From Squalus acanthias (lineage: Eukaryota), in NCBI GenBank assembly GCA_030390025.1, contig CM059432.1, positions 83,392,001 through 83,456,000 on the forward strand: a stretch of 64,000 nucleotides of DNA, read 5' to 3'. The notes under the pieces are model-generated. The model did no database searches. It was not told the origin of the DNA and was given only the letters and a program-made list of their open reading frames with translations. Each line of letters begins with the position of its first letter. The first letter of the stretch is position 1. The position numbers and the translations under genes were made by a program. This document shows, one piece after another, positions 5,210 to 56,558 of this stretch.

Positions 5210-5577
5210 GAGATTTGTGGTTGATGAATTGCAGGTCCTTGCAGGCCCAGGTCACAAGCAGCAATGATCAGAATGAGGCTGTGCAGCACGATTGAACCTC
5301 CCCTTTAAGAACTGTCTGAGTACTTGTAATTGGCAGCGCCTGAACTTGAGTAGCGCTCTGCGGTAGCGCCCCGCTCCCCGACATTAGCGCCCTAAGAGAA
5401 GTGTGTAGCACTTGATTTAGCGCTCCACTGCCCTCTTGGGGCGCTAAAACTGAATTTCGCACTAAAGTTTGCGCCTGGGCGATGTTAGCGCCCCAAAATG
5501 GTTGAGACCGAATTTTTCCTCCCTTGAGTCTATGTTGCCTTATATTTCCAAAACATTTTTCTCTTTTTGTTTTAAAG

Positions 5578-5765
5578 GTTCATAAAAGCACTTGCTTCTG
5601 GATACAAGGCAGCATTCAAACAAAAAAACATTCACCCCGATGTCATTGGTGCAGCAACAGACTTGAGCATGTTACGATTGTTTGAGGCATTTTTGGAAAC
5701 CGCACCTCAACTTGTTCTTCAGACCTTCATCCTGCTGGAGTCTGATGACAGAGACTATATTCAGT
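5578..5765 (+). CDS. XKR9: XK-related protein 9, penultimate coding exon
   Basis: Polypyrimidine tract and AG at 5576-5577; GTAAGT donor at 5766. Translation FIKALASGYKAAFK..TDLSMLRLFEAFLETAPQLVLQTFILLE matches the XK-family signature. Its phase-1 end joins 13944 in frame (T|AT = Tyr). This exon is missing from the ORF track. Confidence 0.92.
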
Positions 5766-11599: not shown

Positions 11600-12111
11600 G
11601 TATTTTAGCTGCTGGTGTCCTTGCAGCACACGGCACAACTCAGCATCTAGCTTTCTGCTGACCTGGAGCCTGTGAACCCAGTTCCCAATGGTCATTACCA
11701 GGTAGGTGTGTCAGGGCCTGTTCATGTAGTTGGTAGGATCTTGGCGGGTTTGGTTATGCTGGCTGTTGACCACCAAACTATACCTGCTTTCAAGCCACTT
11801 AATACATACCATGCTGTGATTGGAATGCTTCCAAAGACCGATCCAGCATAATGGTTAGGCAGGCCCTCACAAATAATATTTGTGCCATCAAGTCTACTGT
11901 CATGGAATTGGAGCCTCTGCATGCAGTAATCCTCTGATATAGCAAGGTATGTGCACCTTTGTCTGAAGATACGGGTAAACGGTACCAGCAGATGGACAAA
12001 GTATGCCTCCGTGCAGCCTAACCTGTCTAGCATCCCTTTGTTGGTCATCCTCTTCTCCCATTGGAAAACCCATCGTGATATTATTGGGGCTGTGGGAAAA
12101 AAAGGCAGCAA
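11600..12111 (-). pseudogene. Highly decayed Harbinger transposase fragment
   Basis: RIFRQRCTYLAISEDYCMQRLQF resembles RVFREHFSYIHLSEELCISRICF at about 46400-46475. Confidence 0.5.
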
Positions 12112-12282
12112 CAGAACAATTGCTACAAAGCCTAATTGGCAGCAGAAAAAAAATCTATCAAAGAAAATGGTTACAAAATTGATTGGCTTAATCCTCTTGC
12201 TAGGCTCTTTAAATGAACTTGCTCATACAGCTCATTCCCTAGCAACCATATACGTCATTTCATTTGGGTGTTTACTTCACTC

Positions 12283-12870
12283 CAGAGCATGGTACATCGG
12301 CGAGACCATGCAGACACTGAGACAACGTATGAACGGACACCGCGCAACAATCGCCAGGCAGGAGGGTTGCCTCCCAGTCGGGGAACACTTCAGCAGCCAG
12401 GGGCATTCAGCCTCGGATCTGCGGGTAAGCGTTCTCCAAGGCGGCCTTCGAGATACACGACAGCGCAAAATCATAGAGCAGAAACTGATAGCCAAGTTCC
12501 GCACTCATGAGGATGGCCTCAATCGCGATATCGGGTTCATGTCACGATACAGAACGTGACTTGACATCATGGCCGGTCTTCCCAGGGGTTTTTTTTTTTT
12601 AAAAAGACTAACACAAGAACACAAATTGACAGGATATGCAGCCAGCAGGTGGTTTGACACGTTGGACCCCCTGGGACACATCTCGTTGTCTTGGCTGTGC
12701 TCTTTGTTGTAGGGAATAATGTGAATAGATTTTGTCTGGGTTTAAATTGTGAATTCTGGGAGATTCTCTCATTGCTAACTTACCTGACGAAGGAGCGAAC
12801 TGCTTCGAAAGCTTGTAAAATTAAATAAATCTGTTGGACTATAACCTGGTGTTGTGCGACTTCTCATTTT
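12283..12870 (+). mobile_element. 5'-truncated Penelope-like element (GIY-YIG endonuclease C-terminus plus pseudo-LTR)
   Basis: YIGETMQTLRQRMNGH..PVGEHF..EQKLIAKF..GLNRD, stop at 12559. Exact 12-bp TSD TTTACTTCACTC at 12271-12282 and 12871-12882. Confidence 0.9.
12780..12818 (+). ncRNA. Minimal type I hammerhead ribozyme in the Penelope pLTR
   Basis: TTAC-CTGACGA-A-GGAGC(gaact)GCTTC-GAAA-GC-TT-GTAA: conserved core, stem I TTAC/GTAA, 5-bp stem II and palindromic AAGCTT stem III. Confidence 0.8.
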
Positions 12871-13943: not shown

Positions 13944-14698
13944 ATGGGTCTGTGATTATATCATGCATGAGCATTTCATGGGCGACTTTGGATTACTATG
14001 CGGCACTAAAAAAATCATTGCCCACTCGACAGAAGCTAGCTTGTGGATTCCCTTATGTGATGTACTTTTTTTACAAGTTGTTTACACTTTGTGCAAAGAT
14101 TCTGAGCATAACGCTATTGGCTACTCTACATATCATAGCTGTCGCCGCTTACTTGTGTGTTTTGTGGCTGATCATGATCATCTATGTCTTGACGCAGAAG
14201 ACCACGTTTGGTACATCCACATGCCAAAACTGTATTTACAGGATAGTAGTTGGCATCATCTTAGTTTTCACCTTTTTCAATATAAAAGATCAGGATACAA
14301 AAGTGGTTATGGCTCTCTATTATATATTTAGAACCTTTGAAATCATTTCAATACTTCTCCTATGCTGGTTTCTGAAAGGCTCTACGGTTGATAAAAGCTA
14401 TGATCTGCCACTTAGTATAACTGTAGGGCTCTCACTATTTATAGGGATTGTTTGTCTTGTGTTGTACTATAGATTTTGCCATCCTCATATTTATTCAGAA
14501 AGGGCAAATGACTTTAATAATTCTCAAACTGAACCACCATTACACAGATCTCATGATGAGGTTGATGGTTGCCTGCCTGAAAATTCAGCAGTTAACATAA
14601 CACTTAACAACATAAATGAAAACAGCAGTATGATTAATTCAGCAATCCCTAATCCTGGAAGAAGAAGCAGGAGAATAACACATTGTTTAACTTTTTAA
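13944..14698 (+). CDS. XKR9: XK-related protein 9, last coding exon
   Basis: Acceptor TTCCTTTTCTTTTGCAG. ISWATLDYYAALKKSLP, YFFYKLFTL, YRIVVGIILVFTFFNIK and YYRFCHP are followed by the caspase site DEVDG. These match vertebrate XKR9 as I recall it. The frame is open to TAA. Confidence 0.93.
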
Positions 14699-23325: not shown

Positions 23326-23715
23326 TGTAAAGGGCAGAGAGGGGGAAGAATTCTGAAGTATGTTCAGGAGAACTTACTTGATCAGTATGTTTCCGGCCCA
23401 ACGAGGAAGGAGGCATTGCTGGATCTGGTTCTGGGGAATGAGATGGGTCAAGTGGAGCAAGTGACAGTAGGTGAACATTTCGGGAACAGTGATCATAGTA
23501 TCATAAGATTTAGATTAGCTATGGAAAAGGACAGGGAGCAATCTAGAGTAAAAATACTTAATTGGAGGAAGGCAAATTTCAGTGGGTTGAGAACAGATCC
23601 GGCCCGGGTAAATTGGAATCAAAGATTGGCAGGCAAAACTGTAATCGAACAATGGACTGCCTTTAAAGAGGAGATGGTTCGGGTACAAAGAGAGAGTATG
23701 AGAATAGATTGGCAG

Positions 23716-25320
23716 TGTAAGCCTCGCTGTCCTATTCTCAGGCTTGTAGTTCGTTTTGATCTGCGAATTATAAGGGAAATAATTAATGAATCACTCAAAA
23801 ACTCTTAAGTTAAATAAGGTCTTTTATTAAAGGAAAAAGGAGAGAAAAGAAAACAAAAACACTTATAGATTTAAATGGCAATGCAATGCCCTTCCTAGCC
23901 TACCTGGCAATACAATGCCCTTCTTACTCTACTCTTAGCAATAAAGATGCTCTAGCAATACAATGCCCAAATATGTTCTAAGTAAATGGTCATACAATCA
24001 CCCCGATGTGGCCAGCTCCTGTTGATTGCAGCTCTCCTCTCGATGATCGGTCGGGCTCCCTTCTTGTTGACTGCAGCTCTTCTTCCGACCCCCCCCCCCC
24101 ACCGACTGCAGTAACAAAGTTACCTTAACAGCTTCTTTTATATCTTTTCCTTTCAATGGTGGACAGGATGTAACATCGTCAAGGCCTCATTGACCTATCG
24201 ATGATAGCCTTAGATCATGATAGCCAAAAATATGTCGCAGTTTTTGTTTAAACTTAAAGTTAAAGCCAGCATGTGAAGACCACAGTAACAGTTAATTGGC
24301 TGGATAGCTCACGCAAATCTCAACCGTCTAGCTGGCAAACTTTCTGATAAGGATTATTTATTGAAGAGGCCCATTGAGTTCTGTGTTATCTCGTCAAGGC
24401 CTAATCCCTCATTGTTTACACAGACGTCTCCTTTAGCTACACAATGGCCCAAAAATTCGGCCGAGAACGGGTGAGTACGGACTGCGTATTCACCCGTATT
24501 AGTTCCCGAAGTGCCGGTTTCCTGCATGCACTGCGCATGCGCGGGAAACCGGCACTTCCGGTATGGTGAAGGGGGCGGTTCCTAAGTGAACCGCGTGCGC
24601 ACTAGAGGTTGCGTGCACGCAGCACACTTAGGTTTTTATTCAGGTTTCAACGCGAGGGTAAGTATGGAAGATTCTACACATGTAAAAAGGAGGCGTAAGA
24701 CCCCTTTTGAACAAGGTAAGTAGTTAATTAAGTATAATTTTTAATTTTTTTCAACAGGTTTATCTTTTTTAGAGACTTTAAAGAAAGGTAAGTTTATTTT
24801 TATAATTTTTAAAAAAAAATTTAGTTTTTTCAAAAATTTAAATTTTTGTTTAAAGTGGTTAATTTATTTAACTATAGTTATTTTATTAATGTGATGGGTT
24901 TTTAAAAAAATTATTTGAGGTTTAGCTGTTCTTTTGTGGTCTCTTTCAATTCACAGATTTGACAGGTCTCCTGTCAAATCTATGAATGAAAGATGGTCTG
25001 CTGCCATTGGCTCTCCATGGCCCACGTGATCCCAGAGGTCGCATCGCACTAACTGCGCCCCTGGGACACGCACACACTGTGCGCTGGCACTAGGGAAAGG
25101 CCCAGGACCCGAAGTCCCTGTGGGCCCAAAACACAACGGCCGGCGCGGAGTGTGATATCGCGCGCGATCCTTACCCCCCACGGCAAGCCTCCGAGTCAAA
25201 TTTCTGGGCCAATGTCTTTGTTCCTTATTGATAGCACGTCTGGTTTCTCTGCTTTGCTACAGCTCTTGTAAGTTTTAATGTCCAGCATGAAAATTGTGTC
25301 AAAACAAAAAGGCCTCCCTC
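23716..25320 (-). repeat. 3' LTR (contains MITE 24446-25210)
   Basis: Direct repeat of 36036-37461, a few percent diverged; similarity breaks down at about 25314-25320. Confidence 0.92.
24446..25210. mobile_element. Harbinger-type MITE, hairpin-rich family
   Basis: TIRs GGCCCAAAAATT / AATTTCTGGGCC and TSD AAT; the empty site is visible in the other LTR (TACACAATGTC at about 37161). Confidence 0.92.
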
Positions 25321-25326
25321 AAGTGT

Positions 25327-27515
25327 CTAGTGTGACTTGACACACTGCGACACTTTTAATAGTTGTTTCCTTTCGGCTTTCTCCACCATATTAAGCAAAC
25401 GTTTGTACCGTTTTCTTCTATATCGATTAATTGATTCTGTAAGGAGGTAGATAACGATGACCAACTGTACCATCACTAGGACATGAGATATGATCCTGAT
25501 CCAGGGGTGAATCTTGATGTTCATACCAATGTCCCACCAGGATGTGGTGGTTTTTATATTGTTGATTCTTGTCCTGGTTGCCCGAATGTGTTGCTGTAAC
25601 TGATAATAATGTTTCCTTGACCGATCAATGGCCACTTTAAGCTTCGTTAAATGTTCGGGCGGGGTGGGATGTCATAACCAAACTTAGTAACATATTTGAG
25701 CAAGCTGAATCTAAGCGTATTATTTACAAGCACTTCAGTAGCGACCTCATGCTGATATAGGTTCATTAACTCTTGCATCCCTATTCTAACTGGTTTAATC
25801 GGGGTAAAACAGAAGTTATGATGATCAATCTGACAAGTGCTATTAGACCCATACTTATATTGAGTTTCACTAGTAGTCACACAATATTCCCCTCTGCCTT
25901 GATATACCCAAGTACCTCCATAGTACAATTAATTGTTTGTTTAGTAAGGTTGAAACCGCATAACGATTCATCATGTTCCTGGACTCTCTGAGGGCACACT
26001 ATGGTCTGTCTCTGCTTCTTACACCCCTGTAGTTCTGTTCCGACTAAAGTCCCACTGATATTCACGAGATAAGCATGGTGTTGGTGATATTGTATATGCA
26101 TCTCCCCTTTTATTATTCTAATATTTTCTAAGCGATAAACTGGGATGGGATTTTCTCCCTTCGGAACTACGGGAAAGTATAAGACTAATCCTAACATAAT
26201 CAAGTTTGATCCTGATTTACATTCATGTCTTACAGGGTAGACTTGTATTAGCCTCCTCAATTCACACATGGTGATATTCCTATGATATTTGACCAGAGCA
26301 CTTAGATACCGATCCTCTATCCAAGAGGGAATTTTACCTTCTTCAACCAATCTTAAATTCTCTCGTGCTTGTTCTACTAACCAGGATCCGTACATTATGC
26401 ACACATCATTCTGTGCTGCCTCGGTAGAAGCATTTCTATCTTCTTTGACTATTGCATTTATTGTTGTGGCGAGAGATTCCAATTGTGTAATTACATCTTG
26501 TAAATGTACTGTCATGATTTGATCTTCACTAAGTTCTCGATCCTGATTAGTATTTGTTTCTTGTAAAATTTTCTTGAGCTGTGCTTTCGTATCTTTAATT
26601 TGTTTATCCAAAGCGGCTAAATCTAAGCTATTTACAAGTGATGTTCCTGTATTAAAGATGATTGCTGCATCATTTACTAAGCTTCGCCTCCCTCTACCAT
26701 GAGTTTCTCCCCCCTTCGGGTTCCCATAGATCTGGTCCTCGTGACGAGACCCATAACTATTACCATTTCTAGCCCAGAGATCATCAACGACTTGTTGCAA
26801 CAGGTTTCCAAACAAGAGGGTGGTTTTTGGCTTACAAAATTCCGGTAACCCCATATTTGTTAATCATTACAGGCACTACCTCATGATGGATATCATGGTA
26901 CAGGATCATGCGTGTAGGAATAATGACTAAACCGTTAGTCGGTCCCTCAGTATGGGTAGGGCAGGGGCCGTCTGGAGAGTGGAGGTTTTCAGGGATACTT
27001 TCTTTCAGTTTAATTTGTACCTTCAGTCCTTGTGGATATATGGTATTGATACATTTATTTTTGTATACTGTCTCACATACATATATCCCCACATCCTTTT
27101 GCCAAAAATTTCTCCAGCAGAAAATTTGTTTCATTTCTCTCGCGTAAGTGACCATCCCGGTTGTATTAAAATTAGCTTGTGTTTTATTGCTCGCATCCTT
27201 TCTTAGGAATGTCTTATTGTTTGATTCACATTCGAGACAGAATCCATTACCTTCTTTCACATATATGGCAGTAGCCTGTATGGACCCATTATAACATGCG
27301 TTGGCCTCCTTATCTGAAGTCTGATTACTGTTGGTACTGGAGTCGTGTTGATTCACGCTCCATCCCCCATCTTTACTGATTATGTGAATTCTTTCGGATG
27401 GACCCTCTGTTCCACCCCTTTGAGTTATTGAACTGGGACCTATGTCGAATCCTTCACTGCAGATTACTACGGTGAATAGCTCAACCACTACTATCAATGA
27501 CCACCACTTCTTCAT
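25327..27515 (-). pseudogene. env: env: class I fusion glycoprotein, 3 frameshifts (about 26850, 25900, 25645)
   Basis: Signal peptide MKKWWSLIVVVELFTVVICS, furin site RGRR (26684-26695), candidate fusion peptide SLVNDAAIIFNTG, heptad repeat, Cys-rich region, TM helix IISHVLVMVQLVIVIYLL and a basic tail. Confidence 0.85.
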
Positions 27516-27520
27516 TGCAC

Positions 27521-27550
27521 CTGCAAAACACAATAAGAACTGTGGTCAGA
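27521..27550 (-). promoter_or_regulatory. env splice acceptor
   Basis: CTCTGAC branch point followed by TTCTTATTGTGTTTTGCAG|GTGCAATG, 5 nt upstream of the env ATG. Confidence 0.7.
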
Positions 27551-29611
27551 GGTGAATTGGCATTCCCACCCGGTCTACACCTTTCTTCCTGGCTGTACTT
27601 TATTGGAAAGAGGGGCTGAACTTATGTGGGGGTTTCCTCTGTCTCCCAGAGGTACGGTGGGGTTCTGGACTATTGTGTCCCGATGAGGATGCCGAGGAGG
27701 ATTGATCTTCCCCCCGAACACCCTTCTGATGCAATACCTGCGGTATCGGTGTCTCTTCAGCTTCCTCTTCTTCTTCATCTAGGATCCACGGCATACTTCT
27801 GACCATGCACATGATGGTTCCAGTCTTCCTAGGCTGCTTCACCTGTGCTTCTGTAGGTCTAAGCTTCATTTGGTTAATATGAAACCATTTGACTTTTTTA
27901 GGCAATTGAACTGCATACACCATAGGACTTGCTTTATCTACTATACTGTATGGTCCCTTATGCAGGGGTTCAAAAACTCCTACTCTGGCCATCTGGTAGT
28001 TTCTTACCATCACTCGGTCTCCGATGTCCTACTCCTGTGGTTTGGACGGAGCCAACAGGAGCTTATTACCTTGATGCGTCTTGCCAATTTTGGCGGCAGC
28101 ATCCAAGTGACGCTTTGTCAGGGTTTCCCATAAATCTTTCAGGAACTTATCCCTGGTTACTTCCTTGATTTGCTTTTCGGTGATGGTGGGAACTAACAGA
28201 TATGCAGGGGTCCGCATAGGTCTCCCTGTCACCAATTCGTGTGGAGAATATCCCGTTCCCTTCGATTCCTTACTCCGGATTCCCATGAGGACCAAGGGAA
28301 GCACTTCATCCCATTTAGCATGCTGCTCGTTCAATTCTTTTCAAGGTGCGGTTCATCCTCTCTATATTCCCAGGTGATAGTGGGTTATGGGCTACATGCC
28401 ATTTCCCTTCAATTCCCAACATCTTCAGAGTGGCCTGCATTACCTTCCCCGTGAAATGGCTTCCCTGATCTGATTCTACCACCTTCGGCAGCCCCATCTG
28501 GAGAATGCTTCCCTGACTAATGTTTTTGCTGTTCCCAAGGCTGTTCCTAATCTACATGGGAAGGTCTCCACCCACTTGGTGAAATTGTCTACCAGGACTA
28601 AACAATATTTATTTCCCTTCTTAGTGGTGGGTAAGGGTCCGATAAAATCTATCTGACCACAGTCCTTCAACACGCTGTGTGTGTCCCAGAGGAGCCTTTC
28701 TCTTGTGTGGATCGGGGTTGATAGCGACGCATATTAGACATCTCTTACAAAAGCTCTCCACATCCTCTCTGAGGTGCGGCCACCATCCCACTTCTTCTAT
28801 TCTTTTCCAAGTGGTCTCAGGTCCCGGGTGTCCTGCCCCTGGACCTCCATGTGCTAACTGAATAAACTCCACCTGATACCCTTCCGGCACTATCCATTTG
28901 TCTCCTTCAAACAGCATTCCCTCTTTAATTTCTGCCTCTCTGGCTCCGTATGGTCCTTCTATCTCTGCCCCTTCCTCTTTTTTTATGACTGCCTTCCGTA
29001 GCACATCTTTCAACTGAATAGTTTTAAGGTTGGGAGGGGGAGGCACCGTATTTGAGGTATGAGTTGCGACATTCACTACCCCCGATTGATACGGGTTTCA
29101 GAAAACTGCTTTCTCTGCGCCCTTCCTGGCCAATTCATCGGCCTTCTGATTACCCTCCCATCTAGTTTCTGTTTTCAAATGGGCTTTTACCTTATGGATG
29201 TAATAGGCATGGCCTGTATCCTTTACGGACTCGAAAATGGTGGCTAACGTAGGAGCCGTGGTTAAGGGTTTTCCATCTGCTGATGTGAACCCCCTTCTAG
29301 CCCAGATGGCTGGATACTCTGTACAAGAATTACAGGTGAACATTGAGTCGGAACAGATAGTATACAGAGGGGGAAACTCAACAGGATGCGTGACCACATA
29401 AGTCACTGCGGCTAGTTCCGCCTGCTGGGCACTCATAGTGGCGGGAAGGGATATTGCTAGTTCAGTTCTCCTCTGTGGATCATAAATCCCACAGCCCATT
29501 TTCCGTTTCCCCCCCTCTACAAAGCTAGAGCAGTCTACATAAATATCTCGTCCCTCTGGGTGGATCCCTGCTCTAAATCCTCCCTCAGTTTCCCAGACTC
29601 CCTCTACAGTA

Positions 29612-30351
29612 CAGTAAACTTTTGTTTAAACGGCACTTAATCATCCGGAATTCTCTAATAACCGGCAAAATTGATACTCAGAAAACAACACCTCAATAAC
29701 CGGAAATGTTGCCGAGTCCGAGTCTTAGTTTCTGTTTGCTTCAGAATATTGAGAGTGGCAGCTACTTTAGAATTGAATGTGTTTCCCAGAGACTCAATGG
29801 ATGAGTTCATTTTTCAGTATGTTACTGTGCCATATAGACTAGGGAAGTCCCAGGTTCTATTGCCGATTTGATGTGAAATTGACATCAAGGACAGTCAGAT
29901 TATGTATAGCACAGATTGCGTGTTAACCACCCCATGGATTCATGGCTGTCAGGTGATAGGTCGTAAATCTTCAGTTGTATAGGGAATAATATATAGTTGG
30001 TTGGGAATAATAAATACTTCATAGGGACTTACCCAGAAGAAAAAGATGACTGGCTGTTGGTGAGTTAGGTAGAGATTGATATGTGAGTGTGGATAAGCTA
30101 TATAGAAGGCATTGGTATGGATAAATTACTTGGAGGGCAATGTACACTTGCCAGTGAAAGCTGAAAATTGATGTCCAGATAAAGATTGTACCAGATAAAA
30201 GTTGGTCATGTTATGTAAATAGCATTCAAATCTTATTTTATTTTTGTTTGTTAAAAATAACCTTGGTAGGCATACCTCTCCGTTATCCGGAATTTTCAAT
30301 CAACCGGTACCATCCCGGTCCCGTCGGTGCCGGATACGAAAGAGTTTACTG
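29612..30351. mobile_element. Tc1/mariner-pogo (Tigger-like) MITE
   Basis: TIRs CAGTAAACT..CGGCAC / GTGCCG..AGTTTACTG and TSD TA. Excision restores the pol frame (KPHTCTVEGVW). Confidence 0.85.
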
Positions 30352-31050
30352 TACATGTGTGGGGCTTTCCCAGGTAGTCGAGGTTAACTGCCAGCTTTGG
30401 ATCATTTATTCTTTTTACCTTGATGCTCCTCTCTTGTAATAACAAAGACCATCTCGCTATCCTAGCACTAGATACTGTCCCTTCTTTGATTCTTCCGTCC
30501 AGCAACAAGCGGATCGGAGTGTGGTGGGTAAGTAACGCGAGAGCCTGGGTGCCGGTAAACACCGAAAAATGCTTCACCGCCCAGAAAGTCGCCAGCAGGT
30601 GGCATTCGCAAGGGGGGAGAAACCCTTTTCCGCCCCTGCTAAAACTCTGGGCGCGTATGCCACTGGTCGCAAGTGGCTGTTCGTTTCCTGCAAAAGGAAA
30701 GCACTTAAACTGGCATCGGTGGCTGCGGCTTCCAAATAGAAGCCCTTGTCAGTGTCCACCGCTCCCAGAGCTGGGGCGGTCAGAAAGTCCATTTTCAGTT
30801 TAACAAACGCCTCGTCGCACTTATCGTTCCATTCCCACTTCACTCCTTTCCTCAATAATCTCAGCAGGGGAGCCACAGTCGCACCGTACTCATCTATGAA
30901 CCCTCTATACTATCCTGTCAGTCCCAAGAATGATCTGAGGGCTGTCAGTGATCCTGGGCGGGTAAATCTTGAACTGCCTTTCTCTTTGCTTCATCTATTG
31001 CTCGCTCCCCACGTCGAATAGTTAGTCCCAAGAACTGAACCTCCTTCTGC

Positions 31051-32701
31051 TGAAGGGATAATTACAAGTCCTAGCCCTTTCGGACTACCCCAGATCAGGC
31101 GTATTCCCCAGACGTTTACCTTCAACTAAAGTTTGCGGTAGCCGGATCCTATAAGACACTTAATTGGGTCTAAAGGTCAGACTACCTCTCCCTAAAGGAA
31201 AGAAACGGTCTAAAGATGTTACCGTCCTCCGGATAGTACTTTTAATAAGTTTAACTAGATTGTAACCTTCCGGATATTATGAGGATCTGGAATACCCCCC
31301 AGAATTCTGCAACTCCTTTGAGTGTACAGAAATTGAGTTTGCAAGATGATACAGAAATACTCTTTGAGATTATTCAAAAAATATATAGATTTATTAACGA
31401 ACCGACATTTAGATAACATTTATTATGGCAATCGCAACTTTAATCGTTTAAAATACAAATAGCTTACATTTCTTATTCTCAGAGATCCTTATTCTCAAAT
31501 CTTAACTTCGTTACATTTCCACACTTCTACTTATTTCTTAATCCAGGATATCCACCAAAATCAAATACCTTGATTACCAGAGACTCAAAAGTTGTAAACT
31601 TACAGAGAATGTCTGTAAAGTTGAGAAACGCTTGTCTTCCCAGTGACTTCTGACTTTCTGTTTGAAAAGGTCTATTTTTATATCTTTTTTGGGTGGTTTA
31701 TCCTTTGAAGTTTTCCTGATGATGTAAGCTAATTGTATCAAGTCATTCTTTGCTGACTTTGTTCTATTCTTTATTGATATCTCTGTTGAATGCTTTCTGT
31801 CTTTACTGTCAATTTAGCCATTGCATGCATAATTATGTCTCTACCTTAGATGTTTCAAAAACCATCAAAAACACAATGACAGCAATGGTTTCTGTTTGAT
31901 GCAATTCTTAGGAAGTCTTTCTATTGAATTTCTAATACTACCTTAACTGATTATTATCAGATGTTGTGACTCTGTGGTATTCCAAGTTCAATACAAGAAC
32001 AATGTAATTGCTTGGTGTATCCATTGAAGTAATATTTTCAAAGTCATCTTGTTTGTGTACCTTTTACAACTTGCAAATACTTTATCTAGGGTGTTCCATA
32101 CATTTCTTATTTACTTCAATTGGTTTTTATCAGACCTCAGGACTCCATATTTCAAGCTTAACATTAAAACTATTTGTTCAGCAGGCGTTTCTTTTACTTG
32201 ATGTCATTTCTTCAAAGCCTTCTGTAGGTATCATTTTTACAATATGTAAATTGAAAATACTTTAACTCAGTGTTTACTTGTTTTCTAGCTATCTCAATTG
32301 GTTGCATATTTAATCGTGTTTCCTGTCTTATTTGATGTTATATTATGAAGGCTTATGGTTGTTTAATATTCTAAGTTTTTGTTTGCATCAGTGTTAGCTT
32401 TTGACATTTTACTTGGATGATTCCATTGTTTTGGTTCCAATGTTCAGACATAGAGGAACCTCCCAATGGTTTGCTTCAATAGGGCATTGTTTCTTGGTCA
32501 ATATCCTATTTCCATTTCAAAGCTTGTGGTGTTTTACAACTTTGTTTAACAACTGATCTTTATCTCAGAAGCCTGTATTGTGCCTGCAGCCTGTGTCTGC
32601 TAAGGCTTATGTCTTTTAAACCCAGTATGTCATTTATTAATAATTTCAGAAATCTGTTTTTAGTATCGTGTATTTTTCTGAATCCTGGCTATTCCTTCAC
32701 A
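31051..32701 (-). mobile_element. Probable solo LTR (1.65 kb) of a different LTR element, inserted in RT
   Basis: TGAAGG...CCTTCACA termini and 4-bp TSD CTGC; excision restores AQIGQKEVQF. Minus-strand TATAAAA at 31676-31682 and AATAAA near 31420. Non-coding and AT-rich. Confidence 0.7.
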
Positions 32702-33311
32702 CTGCCCTATCTGTGCCTTCTTAGGATTTACCTTAAAGCCTGCTGTTCGGAGTAGCTCCAATAACTCCGCCAATAACTCCCCGTGCTCCTTCTCATTCTC
32801 AGAGAGCAACAGCAAATCGTCTATGTACTGTATCAGTTGAGCTGGACAACTGAACTCCCATAGACAATTCGCCATGCTCTGGTGGAAGATTGAGGGACTA
32901 TTATGGAAACCTTGTGGGAGACAGGTCCATGTGTACTGCTGTCCCTTAAAGGTGAAGACGAATTTGTACTGATCCTCTGGATGCAGAGGAATTGACCAGA
33001 AACCATTTGAAATGTCTAAAACTGTGAATACCCTGGCGGACCTCAGGATGTTGCCAATCAGATCTCCCACTGCAGCCACAGTAGGTGCACAAGCAGGGAT
33101 ATTCTTGTTCAGGACTCTATAGTCAATGGTCATTCGCCATGAACTGTCTGGCTTCCTGACCGGCCAAATAGGTGAATTCACATGGGTAGCCAAGGGTCTC
33201 AAGACTCCCTGATCCACCAAAGATGTCACCGCCTTTTCCAAGTCCCTCTCTGCCTCCTTTGGGAAGGTATATTGTTTCTGAGTTCGGGACATAGACTCTC
33301 TTCCTATTCTA

Positions 33312-33758
33312 GACATAGACATAAGACATAAGACGTAGGAGCAGGAGTAGGTCATTTGGCCCCTCGAGCTTACTCCGCCATTCAATAAGATCATGGCTGA
33401 TCTGATCTTGGCCTCAACTCCACTTCCCTGCCCGCTCCCTATAACCCTTGACTCCCTTACCTTTCAAAAATCTGTCTATCTCCACCTTAAATATATTCAA
33501 TGACCCAGCCTCCACAGCTCTCTGGGGAAGAGAATTCCAAAGATTCACGACCCTCTGAGAGAAGAAATTCCTCCTCATTTCCAATTTAAAAGGGTGCCCC
33601 CTTATTCTGAAATTATGCCCCCTAGTTCTAGATTCCCCCACGAGGGGAAACATCCTCTCTGCATCTACCCTGTGAAGCCCCTTCAGAATCTTATATGTTT
33701 CAATAAGATCCACTCTCATTCTTCTAAACTCCAATGAGTATAGGCCCAACCTGCTCAA
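33312..33758 (-). mobile_element. CR1 3' end inserted between protease and RT
   Basis: LGLYSLEFRRMR..RNFFSQRVVNLWNSLP and an (AGACATA)n tail; the flanks rejoin as GRVTGGQVRIGRES. Confidence 0.88.
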
Positions 33759-34329
33759 CCTGTCCTCCCGTCACCCGTCCACAATCATGCTTATGAGTGG
33801 CGAAAGCTTCCCTGTTCTCTTCCACTATCCGCCTATAACTTTCTGGGGTCCTACTCTTCAAAGTCCCCAGGTCATAGGGTCCCGTTGAGGTTACCACCCA
33901 CGCCTCTCCATGGCGAGGCGGGATAACCATTATTTCATCGGTTTTGTCCACTCCACCCCACAAACAGTTATTGTGCATATATACAACTATATTGTGTGCC
34001 AGTAGCCAATCTGATCCCACTACTCCCATTCCCGGTTGATCCCAACGCATTAAAATACACGTCCACTTGGTTTGCAGTGACCCTACTTTAAAACTTAAGC
34101 GTTTGGATACCGCCACAGCCACTGATTTGCCCGAAAATCCTTTGAGTACATATGGTTTTCCGGTAGACCATGGGGAAGTGTTGGGAGCAACTGAGTCAAC
34201 CACTGTATTCGAAGCTCCAGTATCTATTAAGTAATCCCCTTTCTTCCCCTCTACAACTACATCTACACATGGTCTATTGTACTCGTCGTACCTGAGTGGA
34301 CACAGGTACTCGGGCTGGGCGCGGCCCCG

Positions 34330-35966
34330 TCACGCTTGTTCATTGAGCGGTCCCTCATCCCCCTGGGTTAAGTGGACCTTGCCTTCCTGTTGGGCCTTTT
34401 GTTCGTTCATAAATTTGGCTACACATTCCACTAGTTCCTTACAACTAGGGGCACTTGGCTCGGAGGTGGTCACCCCTTTACTTCCTCCTTCTTGCTCCCT
34501 TTTAGGCCTCCTACATTCTCTTACAAAATGGCCCCTTCCTCTAAAATTGTAAAAAACCCTTTCATCCATCCCCAGGGTAGGCTTGAAGGGTTTACCCTCC
34601 TGCTGCCATTTCCTGGGGGTTCCCCCTTTCATTTCACACACCTTCCACTGGGCTGATTCATTTTACCCACTTCCCGCTTCTCATCTTGACGGGACTCGAA
34701 TAACCTAGTCATTGTCCGTAACACCTTCTCCTCAGTGTGCTCGTCATCGGGATCGAACCAGTTTTCCATATGAGCCCTTATATAGGCCAAACTATGGCTA
34801 GTCAGGGTCCTTAACCAATGATTCAATCCCTTTCCTTCTAATTTTTCTCTCAGGATCTCTCCTCAGAGTCAATCAGCAAACTACCTAGGCCATTCTTTCG
34901 GGCCTTGGGTAGTCAATTCTATCTTTCGAAAAGGGTTTCCTACTTCGGCCCCCAATAATTTCTGTAATTCATCCACCAATTCCTCCCAGTCTGATTCGCC
35001 ATTCCTATGGGCCTTCGGGAGTCCCTATAAAACGTCAGGTTCTAACGTGAACAATAACAGTCTTTTATTTTCTTCTTTACTGCAATTTGCCATAGAGGCA
35101 TGTTGCTCTACTATCATTAGATGTTTTTCTATCTCTCCTCCCCTACTCAATTTGCCCACTTCCTTCACTAAACTTTGAAGATCGGTTAGGGAGTACTCCT
35201 GATGGCACTGTCTTTCTTCCTCCATACCTCCATCTCCATCTGTGCCATACTTAAACTTAGTGGTACGGAGGGGACACATTCTCCCGTCCTCCCTTTTCGT
35301 GGGTGCACACGCCGGGGGTCTCCAGTGTTCCCCAGGCGGTCCATAGTCTAACTCCTCTTCCTCATTGCTTACACACCCCGGGGCCATCGCACATACTATC
35401 CCCTTTTTGGTGGACAGTTTCCCCTCTAACTCCCTAATTCTTCTTTCACATTCTACATGGCTTTCTTTCCCCTTCTCTTCTAGAAGTGGCTGGTGGGCCA
35501 CTCTCACTGCCGCTTTCAAGTCCTCATTCTGCCTTTCGGCCTTGTCTGCTCTCTCCTTTTGTCTGGACACTTCCTGTTCCCTTCCATCACTTAGCTTCTG
35601 CCCTTCTAAGACTTGGCTCTTTAGGTATAGAATTTCAGTGAGCTGACACTCCCTTTCACAGTCCCAGTTTTCTCTTTCCTCACTCGGTTCTTTTAACAAT
35701 CGGTCAACCACTGCCTCCTGATCGCTAGCCCTTGCATCCTTTTCCTTGATCTCTTTTCTTAACCTGATCTTTTCACATTCACCATTTTTAAATTGTCTCT
35801 GGTATGCCATGAGCCAGACAGCTTTTAGTAAACCAGAGCGGCAGGTAGTACCCTGCGTCCGCTGTTCAGCTTCACAGACTGGATCTTCCTCGTCTATGAT
35901 CACCCGAACCCAACCTTCTTTCAAAGGTAGCTTCCCTGCTATATACTTAGTTACTAGTTCATCCAT
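34330..35966 (-). pseudogene. gag: gag: N-terminal coiled coil, capsid-like region, decayed CCHC knuckle
   Basis: ATG 70 nt after the 5' LTR; E/K/R-rich heptads; FYNFRGRGHFVREC is a knuckle that has lost two Cys; stop at 35025; final TGA at 34330. Confidence 0.78.
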
Positions 35967-36016
35967 AGATTTCTTTTTTGGATTTGGGTGCTTCTTCTTA
36001 TTTTCCCTTTACGCGG

Positions 36017-36034
36017 GTCCTGCCGCAGTCGTCG
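36017..36034 (-). promoter_or_regulatory. Primer-binding site, tRNA-Arg(UCG)-like but lacking TGG
   Basis: CGA-CGACTGCGGCAGGAC starts 1 nt after the LTR. It is 14/15 complementary to the vertebrate tRNA-Arg-TCG 3' end GTCCTGCCGCGGTCG (tRNA sequence recalled from memory). Confidence 0.65.
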
Positions 36035-36592
36035 TTGTAAGCCTCGCTGTCCTATTCTCAGGCTTGTAGTTCGTTTTGGCCTGCGAATTACAAGGGAAAT
36101 AATTAATGAATCACCCAAAATCTCTTAAGTTAAATAAGGTCATTTATTAAAGGAAAAAGAGAGAAAAGAAAAAAAAAACGCTTATAGATTTAAATGACAA
36201 TACAATGCCCTTCCTAGCCTACCTGGCAATACAATGCCCTTCTTACTCTACGCTTAGCAATAAAGATGCTCTAGCAATACAATGCCCAAATATGTTCTAA
36301 GTAAATTGTCATACAATCACCCCGATGTGGCCAGCTCCTGTTGGTTGCAGCTCTCCTCTCGATGATCAGTCGGGCTCCCTTCTTGTTGACTGCAGCTCTT
36401 CTTCCGACCCCCCCCCCCCCCCCGACTGCAGTAACAAAGTTACCTTAACAGCTTCTTTTATATCTTTTCCTTTCAATGGTGGACAGGATGTTACATCACC
36501 AAGGCCTCATTGACCTATCAATGATAGCCATAGATCATGATAGCCAAAAATATGTCGCAGTTTTTGTTTAAACTAAAAGTTAAAGTCGGCAT

Positions 36593-36990
36593 AGAAACAT
36601 AGAAACTAGGAGCAGGAGTAGGCCATTCGGCCCGTCGAGCCTGCTCCACCATTCAATACGATCATGGCTGATCATCCAAATCCAGTACCCTGTCCCTGCT
36701 TTCTCCCACAGAATCCCCATCGAGCCTGCACCGACACATATCCCACCCTATCCCCGTAACTCCACGTATTTAATTCCCCCTAACACTAAGGGTCAATTTA
36801 TCATAGCCAAATCAACCTAACCCGCACATTTTTGGACTGTGGGAGGAAACCGGAGCACCCGGAGGAAACCCACGCAAACACGGGGAGAATGTGCAAACTC
36901 CACACAGACAGTCACCCGAGGCCAGATTCGAACCCGGGTCTCTGGCGCTGTGAGGCACCAGTGCTAACCACTATGCCACCGTGTTGCCCT
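36593..36990 (-). mobile_element. Full-length HE1-like V-SINE
   Basis: tRNA-derived head with A box TGGCATAGTGG and B box GGTTCGAATC, V-domain and CR1-type tail; TSD GGCAT; absent from the 3' LTR. Confidence 0.9.
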
Positions 36991-37185
36991 GGCATGTGAA
37001 GACCACAGTAACAGTTAATTGGCTGGATAGCACACGCAAATCTCAACCGTCTTGCTGGCAAACTTTCTGATAAGGATTATTTATTGAAGAGGCCCACTGA
37101 GTTCTGTGTTATCTCGTCAAGGCCTAATCCCTCATTGTTTACACAGACGTCTGCTTTAGCTACACAATGTCTTTATTCCTTATTG

Positions 37186-37357
37186 CGGAGATGCTGGTGT
37201 TGGACTGGGGTGGACAAAAGTGAGAAGTCGCACAACACCAGGTTATAGTCCAACAGCTTTATTTGAAATCACAAGCTTTCGGAGCGCTGCGAAAGCTTGT
37301 GATTTCAAATAAAGCTGTTGGAATATAACCTGGTGTTGTGCGACTTCTCACTTTTGT
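37186..37357. mobile_element. Penelope pLTR fold-back insertion
   Basis: 68-bp inverted arms (37214-37281 and 37290-37357) homologous to 12806-12870; TSD TCCTTATTG; absent from the 3' LTR. Confidence 0.85.
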
Positions 37358-39300
37358 TCCTTATTGATAGCACGTCTGGTTTCTCTGCTTTGCTACAGCT
37401 CTTGTAAGTTTTAATGTCCAGCATGAAAATTGTGTCAAAAAAAAGGCTTCTCTTCCTTACAGCAGCTAACATAAAAGAGAATTCAAAAGTCTTCTATAGG
37501 CATATAAATAATAAATGGGTAGTAAGAGGGGTGGGGCTGATTAGGGACTAAAAAGGAGACCTACGCATGGAGGCAGAGGGCATGGCTGAGGTACTAAATG
37601 AGTACTTTGCATCTTTCTTCACCAAGTAAGAAGATGCTGCCGTAGACATAGTGAAAGAGGAAGTAGAGGAGATACTGAATGGGATAAAAGTTAATAAAGA
37701 AGAGGTACTAGAAAGGCTGTCGGCACTTAAAGTTGATAAGTCACCAGGACCGGATAGGATGCATCCTAGGATGCTGAGGGAGGTTAAGGAGGAAATCGTG
37801 GAGGTACTGGCCATAATCTTCCAATCCTCCTTAGATACGGGAGTGATGCCAGAGGACTGGAGAATTGCAAATGTTACACCATTGTTCAAAAAAGGGTATA
37901 AGTATAAACCCAGCAACTATAGGCCAGTCAGTTTAACCTTGGTAGTGGGGAAGGTTTTCGAAATGATTATCAGGATAAAGTTAACAGTCACTTGGACAAG
38001 TGTGGGTTAATTAAGGAAAGCCAGCACAGATTTGTTAAAGGCAAATCGTGTTTAACTAACTTGATTGAGTTTCTTGATGAGGTAACAGAGAGGGTTGATG
38101 AGGGCAACGCGATTGACGTGGTGTACATGGATTTCCAAAAGGCATTTGATAAAGTACCATATAATAGGCTTGCCAGCAAAGTTGAAGCCCATGGAATAAA
38201 GGGGACAGTGACAGCATGGATACGAAATTGTGACAGGAAACAGACAGTAGTGGTGAACGGTTGTTTTTCCAGACGGGAGGAAGGTATACAGTGGTGTTCC
38301 CCAGGGGTCAATACTAGGACCACTGCTTTTCTTGAATATATATTAATGACTTGGACTTGGGAGTACAGGGCACAATTTCAAAATTTGCAAATGACACAAA
38401 ACTTGGAAGTATAGTGAACAGTGAGGAGGATAGTAATAGACTTCAAGAAGACATAGACAGGTTGGTGAAATGGGCGGACAGGTGGCAGATGAAATTTAAC
38501 GCAGAAAAGTGCAAAGTGATATATTTCGGTAGGAAGAACGAGGAGAGGTAATATAAACTGAAGGGTACAATCCTAAAGGGGGTGCATGATAGAGAGATCT
38601 GGGGGTATATGTGCACAAATCATTGAAGGTGGCAGGGCAGGTTGAGAAAGCGGTTAAAAAAGCATACGGGATCCTGGGCTTCATAAATAGAGGCACAGAG
38701 CACAAAAGCAAGGAAGTTATGATGAACCTTTATAAAACACTGGACGGACCTCAACTGGAGTATTGTGTCCAATTCTGGGCACCGCACTTTAGGAAGGATG
38801 TGAAGGCCTTAGAGAGGGTGCAGAAAAGATTTACGAGAATGATTCCAGGGATGAGGGACTTCAGTTACGTGGATAGACTAGAGAAGCTGGAATTGTTCTC
38901 CTTATAACAGAGAAGGTCGAGAGGAGATTTGATAGAGGTATTCAACATCATGAGGGGTCTGGACAGAGTAGATAGAGAGAAACTGTTCCCATTGGCGGAA
39001 GGGTCGAGAACCAGAGGTCACAGATTTAAGGTGATTGGCAAAAGAACCAAAGGCGACATGAGGAAAATCTTTTTTACGCAGCGAGTGGTTAGGATCTGGA
39101 ATGCACTGCCTGAAAGGATGGTGGAGGCAGACTCAATTGTGGCTTTCAAAAGGGAATTGGATAAGTACCTGAAGGAAATATTTTTTCAGGACTACGGGGA
39201 AATGGCGGGGTAGTGGGACTAGCTGAAGTGCTCTTGCAGAGAACTGGTACAGGCTCGGCAGGCCAAATGGCCCCCTTCTGTGCCGTAACCATTCCATGAT

Positions 39301-45703: not shown

Positions 45704-47135
45704 GGGCTAAAAATTCAGGGGTTTAGCGCCACCCATTACCGTCATATTCGGGGGGGAAAAATGGCGGCCGCCACACTTCCACCCGCTGCTGGCGGGTCCC
45801 GCAGCAGCCGGCATTTTCGGGTAGGCGGCAGCGCTGCCGATGTCCGCACTCACGAAAATTATGTAGATTATGTAGATTGTGGCGTCACTGAGTATGCACT
45901 GCTCACTTGATGCTTGATTTGCCATTTAGAACTTTGCTGCTCCACTTCCCTGAAAAGTGTACAAGACCTTATCTCATCATAGATATTATCATCGTCTTTG
46001 TCTCATTCAAGGGGCCTGTAGTCAGATCCTATCATTGTTTGGACCAGCTGAGCAAGTGTTGACCAGTAGGAAGGAGGCTCCAGCAGTGGTAGTTAAAGAG
46101 ATCATCAGCAGCAACTTGCAACTGACATGTTTCTGCAGTTTGATTGGCTCTGTGCAACTTTCTGCAACTCCAGCAGCTTTATAAACGTCGTTCAATGTTC
46201 TAAGGTAACAGGGAGTGTTGCTGCAAGTGGAGAACACCTTCATTCTTATTTAAAGGTTTCTGCTCACAACATTTGCTCACAGTCATGAAGGCTGTACTGG
46301 TAGTCGAGTATCTTAGCGAGAGGGAGCGGAGGTAGCGAAGAAGACAAGAAGATGCGCTCAGAGTAAGGGTGAGGAGGGCTCTCAACAGGAGGCCTTACCC
46401 AGCTAGGGTCTTCCGAGAGCACTTCTCTTATATCCACTTAAGCGAGGAGCTGTGTATTAGTAGGATCTGCTTCAATAAGGAGGTGGTCACAGAACTCTGC
46501 CACCTCCTACAACCAGACCTGCAGCCTGAGAGCAGGGCTGAGATTGCATGAGAACAGTCTGATCTTGCGTGGCAGCAAGCTCATACTGCAGGACAGCGGT
46601 CCATGCTTCCGCTGCAGCACTAAGACTTTGGGTCGCTTCCGCCTGTGCTGCAATGGCAGCTATGACCTCATCCATCACATGCAGCATCATGTCTGGGTCA
46701 ACACGGTCTCTCCTGGAGTTTTCCATCATTTCCAGCCTGGAAAACCTGGGCTCCAAGCTTTGCGCAAAGCCCCGTTCAATGTTGGAGGCGGACTCATCCA
46801 TGCTCTTTGACATTGCCATTGCACCTAGCAATTCTGTGTGCATGCCCATCACCCTTCTTCTGAAGGCTGCCCCATCGAGGTCCTCATCTGAGTCGTGTGC
46901 AGCAGAACTCATATGCAAACTCGCCCTCTGGGGAGCTGGCACCAGAGCTACCCTTTCCCCCTGGCCTTGCTGCAGCCCACTTGTGCAGATCCTGCTTCTA
47001 CACTACCCTCTAAATTACACGCAGAGCCAGTTTCTGAGCTGGTGTCTGTGAGTGACAGATGCAGTGATGCTGTGTCGTCTTCCCCCTCGCTCTCCTCCAT
47101 CACCTGGGTTCAGGCTGGGCTGGTGCTTGGTCTTG
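45704..47135. mobile_element. Internally deleted Harbinger, copy 2
   Basis: End GGGCTAAAAATTC. Transposase 5' part 46285-46538 (+; RVFREHFSY..KEVVTELCHLLQPDL) abuts a piece of Myb exon 3 (-; AAHDSDEDLD..) at 46540-47135. Confidence 0.8.
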
Positions 47136-48677: not shown

Positions 48678-50557
48678 ATGCTGAGCCTCAGCACAGGGAG
48701 AAAGTGAGAAGATTCTCAGACGTGGCTCTGGAAGCACTGGTGGTGGCCGTGGAGAGGAGGCGGGCTGTCCTCTTCCAGCAAGGCGGCAGAAAGCCATCGG
48801 GACATACATTCAGAAGGCTGTGGTGGGAGATAGCCACTCGTGACGGCCAGCACTGTGGTCCCCAGGTCGGCCATCCAGTGCCGAAAGAAATTTAATGATC
48901 TCACACGGCAGGTCAAGGTGAGTGAAGGCTTCAGCAAATGCCATATCCCACCATCTGCACCACAAGCCTCACACACTGCTCAATGCACCACTCCCCCAGC
49001 ACTCACCTACCAACAATCTCTATCATCACTCACATCTCACAATCATAGCTTCACTTCACCCTCACAACCTTACCACTGCTGCAGCGCCTCACACCTTGCA
49101 CACACTGACAACTATTCAACTATGGCAGGCACATCACCCAAACACTGCATCACACTCACTCACACACTTCCCTTTCTCTTGCAGGCCAAGCTGGCACATA
49201 ATCGCTGGGAGCAGCAGCAGACAGACGGGGGCCAGGCAAGCACGCAGGACTTCAGCCAGCTGGAGGAACGAGTACTGTAGATAATTGGGCGGCATGTGGT
49301 AGAGGCCGTAGTAACTAGTGAGGTTGAACCACCTGGGGACAACAATGGTATTCTCATTCCTAATCCTTCTTCTCAAATCCCACTTCCCCTTCATCCCACA
49401 ATCTCTTCTCGCTTTCAAGCTACTGATGCTGTATGCATGCATATCTTGCTTTCCCGCTCCCATCCCTCACCATAACCCAACTCTTGTGCCTTTCTGCTTT
49501 CAGGTAATCAACAAGCACCTAACAGCCTGTCCCCGACGTCATTGCAGAGAGCATAGGGGGAGAAGAAGAAGACACCACATTACTGCATCTGTCACTCGCA
49601 GACTGCAGCTTAGAAACTGGCACTACGCAAACTTTAGAGGCTAGCGTAGTAATGGGATCTGCACTGGGCGATGCACCGGGCACAAGTGGGCTGCAGCAAG
49701 ACCAGGGGGAAAAGGTAGCTTGGGAGCCAGCTCCCTGGAGGGCGAGTTCACATGCGAGTTCTGCTGCACAGGACTCAGATGCGGACCTTGATGGGCAGGC
49801 ATACCGAATTGATGGATGCAATGGCAAGCCTGCATGAGAGCCTCTCGGCAATGTTAAGGAGCGTGGAGGAGTCCGCCTCCAACATTGCACAGGGCTTCGC
49901 GCAGAGCATGGAGCCCAGGATTTCCAGCCTGGAAATGATGGTACACTCCCAAAGAGACTGTGGCGAACCAGACGTGATGGCGTGCATGATGGGCGATGTT
50001 GCAGCTTCCATTGCAGCACAGGTGGAAGCGACCCAACATCTTAGTGCTGCAGCAGAAGCTCAGACTGCTGTCATGCAGTCGCAGCTTGAAGCCACCCAAG
50101 CTCTGACTGCTGCCATCATGGCTGAGTTTACCACCGTCGACCGGGGCTTTCAGGGTGTCGCAGCAGGCCAGCACTCTGTGCTCCAACAGATTGCTAGGAA
50201 TGCTTAGGCGTCGCCCCGGGGGAGTGGCAGTAGGAGCAGGACCCTGCTGTCCTCTCTCAAGATGACAGTATTCCTGTTCTGACCTCTGCCACTTCGCCAT
50301 TGCCCTTGCCGCTGTCTGTCAGCCAGCCAGCCCACACTGCTGCCACCCATGCAGAAGTGGTGCAGTCTACAGCAGGGCCTTCTAAGACCAGAGCTGCTCG
50401 AGGTTGTCCTGCAAGGCCATCTGAAATCTTCTGCATGGAAACTCAGCAGCCTTCCACCAGCCATGCTGCAGCCACTGGGGGAGCACTTTGTAGGAGCACT
50501 AGATCAGGAAAGGGCACCCAAACGACAGGCACTAAGGCATTGCACAAGGGTGATTAG
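48678..50557 (+). pseudogene. Harbinger Myb/SANT gene (exons 48678-48917, 49185-49347, 49504-50557), disrupted
   Basis: RFSDVALEALVVAVERRRAVLF..QCRKKFNDL|AKLAHNR..TDGG; canonical splice sites; stops and frameshifts. Confidence 0.8.
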
Positions 50558-50737: not shown

Positions 50738-51345
50738 TGGAATTGCAGTCTGATGAGCCGTTCACGGGGAGCCCGTCCAGAGGGTGATGAGCTGCCTGCC
50801 TCCTCCCTCCTCGTCCTCTTGCTCCTCATGGTCCTCCTCATCCTCTTCCTTCTTGTCCTCCTCCCCCTTGTCCTCCTGAGGTGATGCCGCAATCCCTGGT
50901 GGCAAGGTCTGTGCCCTCATGATGGCCAAGTTCTGAAGCATGCAGCAGACCAACACGAAATGGGACACCTGCTCCGGTGAGTACTGGAGGGCTCCTCTCG
51001 AGTGGTCAAGGCAGCGGAACCATTTCTTCAGTAGCTCGATGGTCCGCCCAATGATATTCCTGGTGGAAGCATGGCTCTCATTATAGGAGTGCTGGGCACA
51101 AGTGTTGGGGTTACGGAGGGGAGTCATGAGCCAGGTGGAGAGCGGATAGCCCTTGTCTCCAAGCAGACACCCTCGAGCCTGATGTGGTGGCTGGAAGATT
51201 GCTGGCTCACCAGACTGACGCAGGTTGAATGCATCATGGCTGCTGGCAGGATAGCGGGCATTGACACTGAGGAATCGCTGTGTGTGGTCGCACACCAATT
51301 GCACATTAAGTGAGTGGTAGCCTTTCGGTTATGGAAGATCTCAGG
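50738..51345 (-). pseudogene. Harbinger transposase C-terminal half
   Basis: [34 protein letters not shown] and an acidic tail. Confidence 0.9.
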
Positions 51346-55797: not shown

Positions 55798-56558
55798 GGG
55801 GCAGAAATTAGGCTCGCCACGGGTGAGTACGCACTATGTACTCACCCGTGGACGGAACGAAAGTGCCGGTTTCTTGCATGCACTGCGCATGTGCGGGAAA
55901 CTGGCACTTTCGTTCCCCTGAAGGAAGGGGTTCAGAGGTCGAACGCGCACGCCGGAGAGGCAGCGCGTAGACCTCGCACTTTTTTTTTTACAGGTTCCTC
56001 CGTGAGGGTAAGCACGGAAAAGATACACTTTGAAAAAGGAGGCGCAAGGCCTTCTTTTAACAAGGTAAGTGGTGATTTTATTCAAATTTAAACATTTTTT
56101 TCATAGATTATCTTTTTTAATTACTTTAAAGAAAGGTAAGTTTAGTTTTAGCCCCGTTAAAAACTGTAATTATTTTTTTCAAAAATTTTAATTTTTGTTT
56201 AAAATAGTTAATTTATGTTATTTATAGTTATTTTAAAAATGTGATGTTTTTAAAAAATTTATTTGTAGTTTTAGGGAGGTTTTGGGGCTGATTTGTATTC
56301 ATAGATTTGACAGGTCTTCCTGTCAAATCTATGAATGAAAGGTGGCCTGCTGCCATTGGCTCTCCATGGCCCACATGATCCCAGGGAACGCATCGCACTA
56401 ACTATGCCCCTGGGATACGCAAGCACTGCGCGCCGGCAGTTGGAGGAGGCCCAGGAGCCGAATTCCCCGCGGGCCCAGGGGTCAACGGCAGGCGCGGTAG
56501 GTAGGTGCGCGCGCGATCCTTGCACCCGCGGGAAGCCAGGGAGCCGAATTTCTGGCCC
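55798..56558. mobile_element. Harbinger-type MITE, hairpin-rich family
   Basis: TIRs GGGGCAGAAATT / AATTTCTGGCCC; TSD TAT/AAT; colinear with 24446-25210. Confidence 0.9.

Follow-up and report, generated by a model that had tools for sequence, protein, structure and literature searches.

Retroviruses related to the snakehead retrovirus (SnRV) form the clade Huo, which Xu et al. (2018, PMC6001957) reported from every major lineage of vertebrates, and an endogenous retrovirus (ERV) of the elephant shark, CmiERV lineage I (9.6 kb, 3.3% divergence between its long terminal repeats, LTRs), was reported to cluster with SnRV (Han 2015, PMC4422223). The lokiretroviruses (Loki; Wang and Han, PMC7947760), renamed lokiorterviruses in PMC9040795, were reported from none of the six cartilaginous fish genomes in their authors' table, in agreement with the background given with the original prediction for the locus described here. 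The envelope protein (Env) of foamy viruses is F-like by structure (subclass Ib; Fernandez et al. 2024, PMC11468914), and Viro3D expects further F-like cases in Retroviridae; Wang and Han (2022, PMC9040795) preferred independent Env origins, as the Envs of Loki and of canonical retroviruses were without detectable similarity. The provirus studied here lies on the minus strand at 23716-37461 of a 64,000-nucleotide stretch (contig CM059432.1 of assembly GCA_030390025.1, positions 83,392,001 to 83,456,000), called the window below, to which all coordinates refer. The original prediction had taken it for a chondrichthyan lokiretrovirus or a new related lineage.

We found that it is best read as a dead provirus of a large retrovirus family of the canonical branch with an F-type Env, whose likeness to Loki is an old shared trait and not membership, a reading to which we give a probability of about 85%. 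The element, of 13,746 bp, has TG...CA termini, GCAG duplicated at either side and the gene order gag-pro-pol-env. It is complete in that all parts are present, as had been claimed, but dead: all genes are broken, with stops and frameshifts in pol and env, the primer-binding site has degenerated, the 3' LTR is shorter at its U3 edge than in sister copies, and this copy is inactive. Its features are as follows:

36036..37461, minus strand: 5' LTR, some 850 bp of its own sequence plus two nested inserts; TG...CA; GCAG at 37462-37465
36017..36035, minus strand: primer-binding site, degenerate here; sister copies match tRNA-Arg(UCG)
34330..36008, minus strand: gag, broken; N-terminus charged and coiled-coil-like, zinc knuckle degenerate, a TGA in frame ahead of pro
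33724..34329, minus strand: protease; RVP E 1e-4 (Pfam)
32702..33310, minus strand: reverse transcriptase (RT) core, uninterrupted; RVT_1 E 2e-32 (Pfam)
30344..31050, minus strand: RT thumb and tether (old RNase H), frameshifted; RT_RNaseH_2 E 6e-14 (Pfam)
29098..29611, minus strand: second RNase H; RNase_H E 2e-19 (Pfam)
27600..29097, minus strand: integrase; zinc finger, rve core, weak SH3/p58-C tail (Pfam); stops and frameshifts
25327..27545, minus strand: env, F-type, in four pieces
23716..25320, minus strand: 3' LTR, one nested insert; short U3 edge; GCAG at 23712-23715

Placement of the reverse transcriptase

All RT trees use the uninterrupted RT core (32702..33310) and contain 61, 26 and 40 rows, picked by near-duplicate thinning from 141 and then 160 RT segments. 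The Loki reference loci (L021-L023) were found by a motif scan and their RTs closely match published rows; the references for SnRV (L075, P0013) and for walleye dermal sarcoma virus (WDSV; L156) were matched to published rows, on which the gamma labels also rest in part. Rows that we take to be foamy, beta, delta or ERV-L were assigned from motifs and lengths.

The motifs WPVRKPD, LPQG and YIDD, read at the outset, are all in the sequence. The RT core of the provirus is 54-59% identical to frog and coelacanth relatives, 50% to SnRV, 34-38% to foamy rows, 34-35% to Loki and 23-29% to the two gypsy rows. PFG stands in all 24 Loki RT rows inspected in the supplement of PMC7947760, and PQG in the provirus and SnRV. 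In the trees of 61, 26 and 40 rows, the provirus fell within the starred retrovirus clade without Loki (support 95/86, 95/95 and 95/92, respectively) and was held by a shark-frog-coelacanth clade (93/91, 95/92 and 94/91), the published layout with Loki outside Retroviridae being recovered. A forced grouping of the family with Loki was rejected by the approximately unbiased (AU) test (p=0.0009). All 19 rows from the host's own genome in the RT tree fell within the provirus clade, and when the host genome was queried with a Loki RT (16,871 candidates, 146 places scored), no scored place exceeded 41%. The foamy rows formed a separate clade (100/100) in all three trees, with the provirus outside it; SnRV stood in a polytomy with the provirus clade in each of them, yet it has the highest identity among the named viruses. 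On these data the RT clade, with sharks, skates, frogs and coelacanth, is a canonical branch, loosely class III or SnRV-related.

The identification as a chondrichthyan lokiretrovirus was not upheld by this placement. The RT had also been expected outside both ordinary Ty3/Gypsy clades and the known ERV classes; it is not Ty3/Gypsy, but it is nested in canonical Retroviridae. As for a new related lineage, the RT clade seems to be already sampled by CmiERV lineage I, which was compared by eye and is absent from the trees, and the part that stands is the F-type Env, which the papers searched did not describe.

Envelope protein

The proposed similarity of Env to Mononegavirales F proteins, and its homology to the Loki Env, were borne out by a sequence profile and by the fold of a sister copy. 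Profile A3 was built without Loki, SnRV or foamy rows. Among 441 open reading frames (ORFs), it matched the Loki Envs (E 6e-20 and 3e-18), SnRV (4e-11) and foamy Env (3e-7 and weaker) and gave E >1.5 with gamma Envs; among 194 further ORFs, it matched the WDSV Env (1e-11). The best reversed decoy reached 0.28. A profile from which the long helices had been removed kept Loki (1e-13) and foamy (7e-7), with SnRV down to 0.015 and WDSV to 0.003. The top PDB sequence match of the family profile was foamy Env 8rm1 (E 0.002), and in pairwise comparison the provirus and Loki Envs are 23% identical over 288 residues (E 6e-7). The profile search returned 74 Env relatives, the named ones being one skate, three sharks and three frogs. 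An F-type env lies downstream in each of 12 loci drawn from across the RT clade (three as short weak pieces), a gamma-type env in none of the 12, and a frog Pol of this clade continues into the Env start of the provirus family. A word-based search with the provirus Env piece retrieved none of 5021 candidates among longer proteins, and phmmer and the shallow profile A1 gave no relevant Env match in PDB.

The env pieces encode a signal peptide, an RGRR site, a long heptad repeat 1 (HR1) helix, Cys-rich beta domains, HR2 and a transmembrane helix; neither an immunosuppressive domain (ISD) nor a CX6CC motif is present in any of the three env frames. The model of a sister-copy Env (47% identical; predicted local distance difference test, pLDDT, 70) matched the F proteins of human parainfluenza virus 3 (hPIV3), respiratory syncytial virus (RSV), Newcastle disease virus (NDV) and Nipah virus (Foldseek E 1e-9), the best with Z 11.4 and a root-mean-square deviation of 4.1 over 275 aligned residues, and 216 PDB chains of paramyxovirus and pneumovirus F were found at E<=0.001. 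It also matched Env models of walleye epidermal hyperplasia virus 1 (WEHV-1), WDSV and feline foamy virus. As modelled from the sister copy, the Env of the family would have an F-type, paramyxovirus-F-like fold. The SnRV and WDSV Envs seem to be F-type too, because the profile matches both and the fold search matches the WDSV and WEHV-1 models.

The N-terminal arm of Env (26950-27450, minus strand) scores about 0.9 with immunoglobulin (Ig) V-set clusters in Atlas, as a lead only, and probably contains an Ig-like domain. An arm resembling it was seen in a frog relative and, by eye, in the SnRV Env.

Gag, tether and integrase

The coiled-coil Gag first proposed holds for composition, the measure applied here in place of a coiled-coil predictor: its N-terminus is rich in E, K, R, Q, L and A, with a crude composition score of 0.68, where SnRV scores 0.73 and Loki 0.70. 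Gag gave no Pfam match, no Atlas match and no blastx match to the reference ORFs. Some Loki members have a separate smc-like gene; no such ORF was seen in the provirus, its charged region being at the Gag N-terminus. The two RNase H domains claimed for it were both recovered by Pfam. A tether and second RNase H between paired LTRs is a Loki-like layout that is also canonical, hence not diagnostic. SnRV likewise combines a coiled-coil-like Gag, a double RNase H and an F-type Env, so none of the three is specific to Loki. The Loki-like Env would be an old trait common to Loki and several retrovirus branches.

Alternative explanations

Several observations weigh against a canonical family with an old shared Env. 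The RT alignment has only 188 columns, the trees lack resolution at depth and never recover SnRV as sister; the sampling comprises three Loki rows (all teleost-like), two gypsy rows and no Odin. The family integrase, with identities taken from unbroken relatives, is 44% identical to Loki versus 35% to SnRV. In the integrase tree the family falls on the same side as Loki, the frogs and the coelacanth (53/81, unstarred), the frog and coelacanth relatives carrying NYNRIN-like annotations, and joining it with SnRV is rejected (p=0.006); in the trees of thumb-tether and of RNase H it stands next to Loki without resolution. For Env, the provirus and SnRV proteins gave no pairwise match and the alignment behind the sister model contained four Loki-type rows. 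The provirus's own 327-residue piece (pLDDT 45) had no Foldseek match at E<=0.001, with F proteins and foamy Env among weak rows only. No Pfam F family was found in the provirus Env or in 25 relatives, PF00523 matching the Loki Env and not that of the provirus. Integrase and tether lean weakly to Loki, and both slow change from shared ancestry and old recombination fit the domain data.

Recombination would have fitted a canonical RT core with a 3' half taken from Loki (tether, integrase, env), or, in the opposite direction, this clade would have donated integrase and env to Loki; the Loki likeness would in either case come from transfer instead of common descent. The integrase speaks for it, as do a thumb-tether closer to Loki (37-38% identity) than to SnRV, gamma or foamy, and Loki being the best outside match of the Env profile; Wang and Han (PMC7947760) moreover infer an integrase replacement in Loki, and Env swaps within the clade are indicated by CmiERV lineage I, which reads as gamma-type. 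We nevertheless regard this origin as unlikely: a node of the family with Loki is supported in no domain, slow evolution in both would yield the same identities, and a single transfer fails to explain the spread of an Env that is also matched in SnRV, WDSV and foamy viruses. A genuine chondrichthyan lokiretrovirus whose RT has diverged to an unusual degree would account for the shared gene order, the double RNase H, the RXXR site and the homologous Env; the RT motifs and identities, the three trees and the AU test speak against it, together with a CCHC knuckle present in sister Gags and SnRV and not in two Loki Gags, and we hold it to be very improbable. An env-bearing, errantivirus-like Ty3/gypsy element could be argued from the SH3-type integrase tail and from the F-type env common in invertebrate gypsy elements (bioRxiv 2023.10.26.564294), but the RT is far closer to SnRV than to the two gypsy rows, a second RNase H is present and all trees place it in the retrovirus clade, so that we give this origin almost no credence.

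Origin of the retroviral envelope

A canonical family with a Loki-homologous Env suggests that retroviruses have had a paramyxovirus-like fusion protein for a very long time. More tentatively, and at somewhat less than even odds, the shark-frog-coelacanth clade would be a slow, deep canonical branch that kept the Env, integrase and tether of the Loki-Retroviridae ancestor, the F-type Env being ancestral to Loki, foamy, SnRV and epsilon viruses and the gamma and beta Envs later. If true, an ancestral F-type Env would overturn the independent-acquisition model preferred in PMC9040795. A canonical RT lineage whose Env is plainly homologous in sequence to that of Loki argues against independent acquisition, and one profile also joins the family Env to those of SnRV, WDSV and foamy viruses. 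The origin of retroviral Env becomes testable by ordinary sequence trees, beyond the structural link for foamy Env.

This family would escape the Env-based surveys of ERVs in fish and amphibians, whose queries were exclusively of gamma and beta type. The literature searched, which did not extend to repeat databases, held no description of an F-type Env in the RT clade, nor of a sequence bridge to the Loki, SnRV, WDSV and foamy Envs; Repbase or Dfam may already list the family. The single copy is an ordinary dead provirus, and the value lies in the family.

Host, family size and genomic setting

The provirus lies inside an old long interspersed element (LINE) and downstream of the last detected XKR9 exon. 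Two XKR9 exons are at 5576-5764 and 13979-14695 (plus strand), and the provirus is about 9 kb past the second, on the opposite strand. The XKR9 exon used for comparison shares 80% identity with Heptranchias and Pristiophorus, 56-69% with 14 further proteins of sharks and rays and some 40% with mammals. Judged by these identities, the host is chondrichthyan, as predicted, and probably a squalomorph shark, the XKR9 tree leaving the shark group unsplit. The host LINE at the insertion (23687-23711 and 37466 onward) is collinear with a copy at 8980-10490, minus about 220 nt.

The family is large in the host genome. In the 3.7 Gb searched, the RT query gave at least 150 matches at 74-100% identity (14,640 candidates), about 35 of the matches listed, counted by eye, lying in open frames of >1,000 residues. 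The Env piece gave at least 122 matches (8,082 candidates) and the LTR at least 41, from the 40 of 148 candidates that were scored. In viral_contigs, the provirus RT returned zero loci and the Loki motif 0 matches.

Other repeats were observed in the window. DDE_Tnp_4 transposon copies, presumably of Harbinger type, lie at 883-1365, 50762-51328, 3373-4272, 46487-47002 and 49719-50207 and carry a second ORF without a Pfam family. An ORF at 11930-12559 (plus strand) looks by eye like a GIY-YIG (Penelope-type) endonuclease, with no Pfam match, and a 46-nt tandem repeat of about six copies is at 60370-60725.

LTRs, nested inserts and proposed history

The paired LTRs (23716-~25320 and 36036-37461) and the 4-bp target duplication reported earlier were recovered, the LTR alignment falling into three pieces of 95.5, 97.8 and 96.1% identity. 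The Kimura two-parameter (K2P) divergence is 0.036 over 835 sites (3.6%), which would loosely bound the age between about 8 My (mammalian rate) and 81 My (10x slower shark rate), the tenfold slower rate being an assumption of Han 2015 (PMC4422223).

Six inserts had been announced, most with clean duplications or restorable flanks, and a genome of about 9.5 kb without them. We found all six, with target duplications visible for five; removing their approximately 4.2 kb leaves about 9.5 kb. By depth, the four covered by this measure are high-copy host repeats.

24446..25210: insert 1, like a miniature inverted-repeat transposable element (MITE), inverted ends, 3-bp duplication; another copy at 55796-56567
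29612..30351: insert 2, MITE-like, inverted ends, TA duplication; presumably Tc1/mariner type
31051..32701: insert 3, 1.65 kb, TG...CA, 4-bp duplication; probably the solo LTR of another, very high-copy element
33311..33767: insert 4, between protease and RT, 3' end of a short interspersed element (SINE) or LINE; no clear duplication
36590..36991: insert 5, SINE-like, short duplication
37178..37366: insert 6, fragment of a palindromic repeat (144 bp), with some 14 bp duplicated

The joint across insert 3, with four shared letters, is present in contigs of three sequencing runs.

The anatomy, the RT placement, the sister-copy fold and the Env homologies are results of the analysis, and the steps proposed here are drawn from the anatomy and general retrovirology. 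The parent virus was most likely primed on tRNA-Arg(UCG), to whose 3' end in the host the primer-binding site of two sister copies matches. Gag-Pro-Pol would be made by readthrough of the in-frame TGA after gag, a TGA-type layout that is the same in SnRV and Loki. Env would be translated from a spliced RNA with an acceptor before the env ATG, just ahead of which lie a pyrimidine tract and CAG, and its precursor would be cut at RGRR by a furin-type protease. The F-type core would drive class I fusion, and the N-terminal Ig-like module may bind the receptor. After integrating into the LINE, the copy would have gathered the six host repeats, the stops and the frameshifts. Long tandem arrays bearing tRNA-Arg(UCG), repeating at intervals of about 1,623 bp, were observed elsewhere in the genome (L147-L150; G000 C26, ~39-42 Mb), with 433 exact matches genome-wide.

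Comparison with known systems

Foamy Env shares the F-like fusion core and is the best PDB sequence match of the family profile; its receptor-binding domain lies between the subunits, whereas the extra module of the provirus is N-terminal. Loki has the same gene order, tether and RNase H, an RXXR site, a similar integrase and a homologous F-type Env. It differs in that the provirus RT lies outside the Loki clade with PQG instead of PFG, in that the CCHC knuckle of the sister Gags and SnRV is missing from two Loki Gags, and in the long N-terminal Env arm with its probable Ig-like domain, which the Loki Env of L021 is without. SnRV resembles the provirus in its in-frame gag-pol, charged Gag N-terminus, single CCHC knuckle and an Env matched by the family profile; it is never sister in the RT trees, the integrase grouping is rejected, and no accessory ORFs were seen in the provirus. 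CmiERV lineage I is likewise a chondrichthyan ERV with a charged repetitive Gag and, by eye, the RT motifs PACAP and PQGFHNSP; its Env is gamma-type (ISD-like, CX6CC, by eye) and its primer-binding site another, in contrast to the F-type Env here. A retrovirus of this kind in a shark is not new, since CmiERV lineage I and Huo were already described; against these accounts, what stands out in the provirus is its F-type Env.

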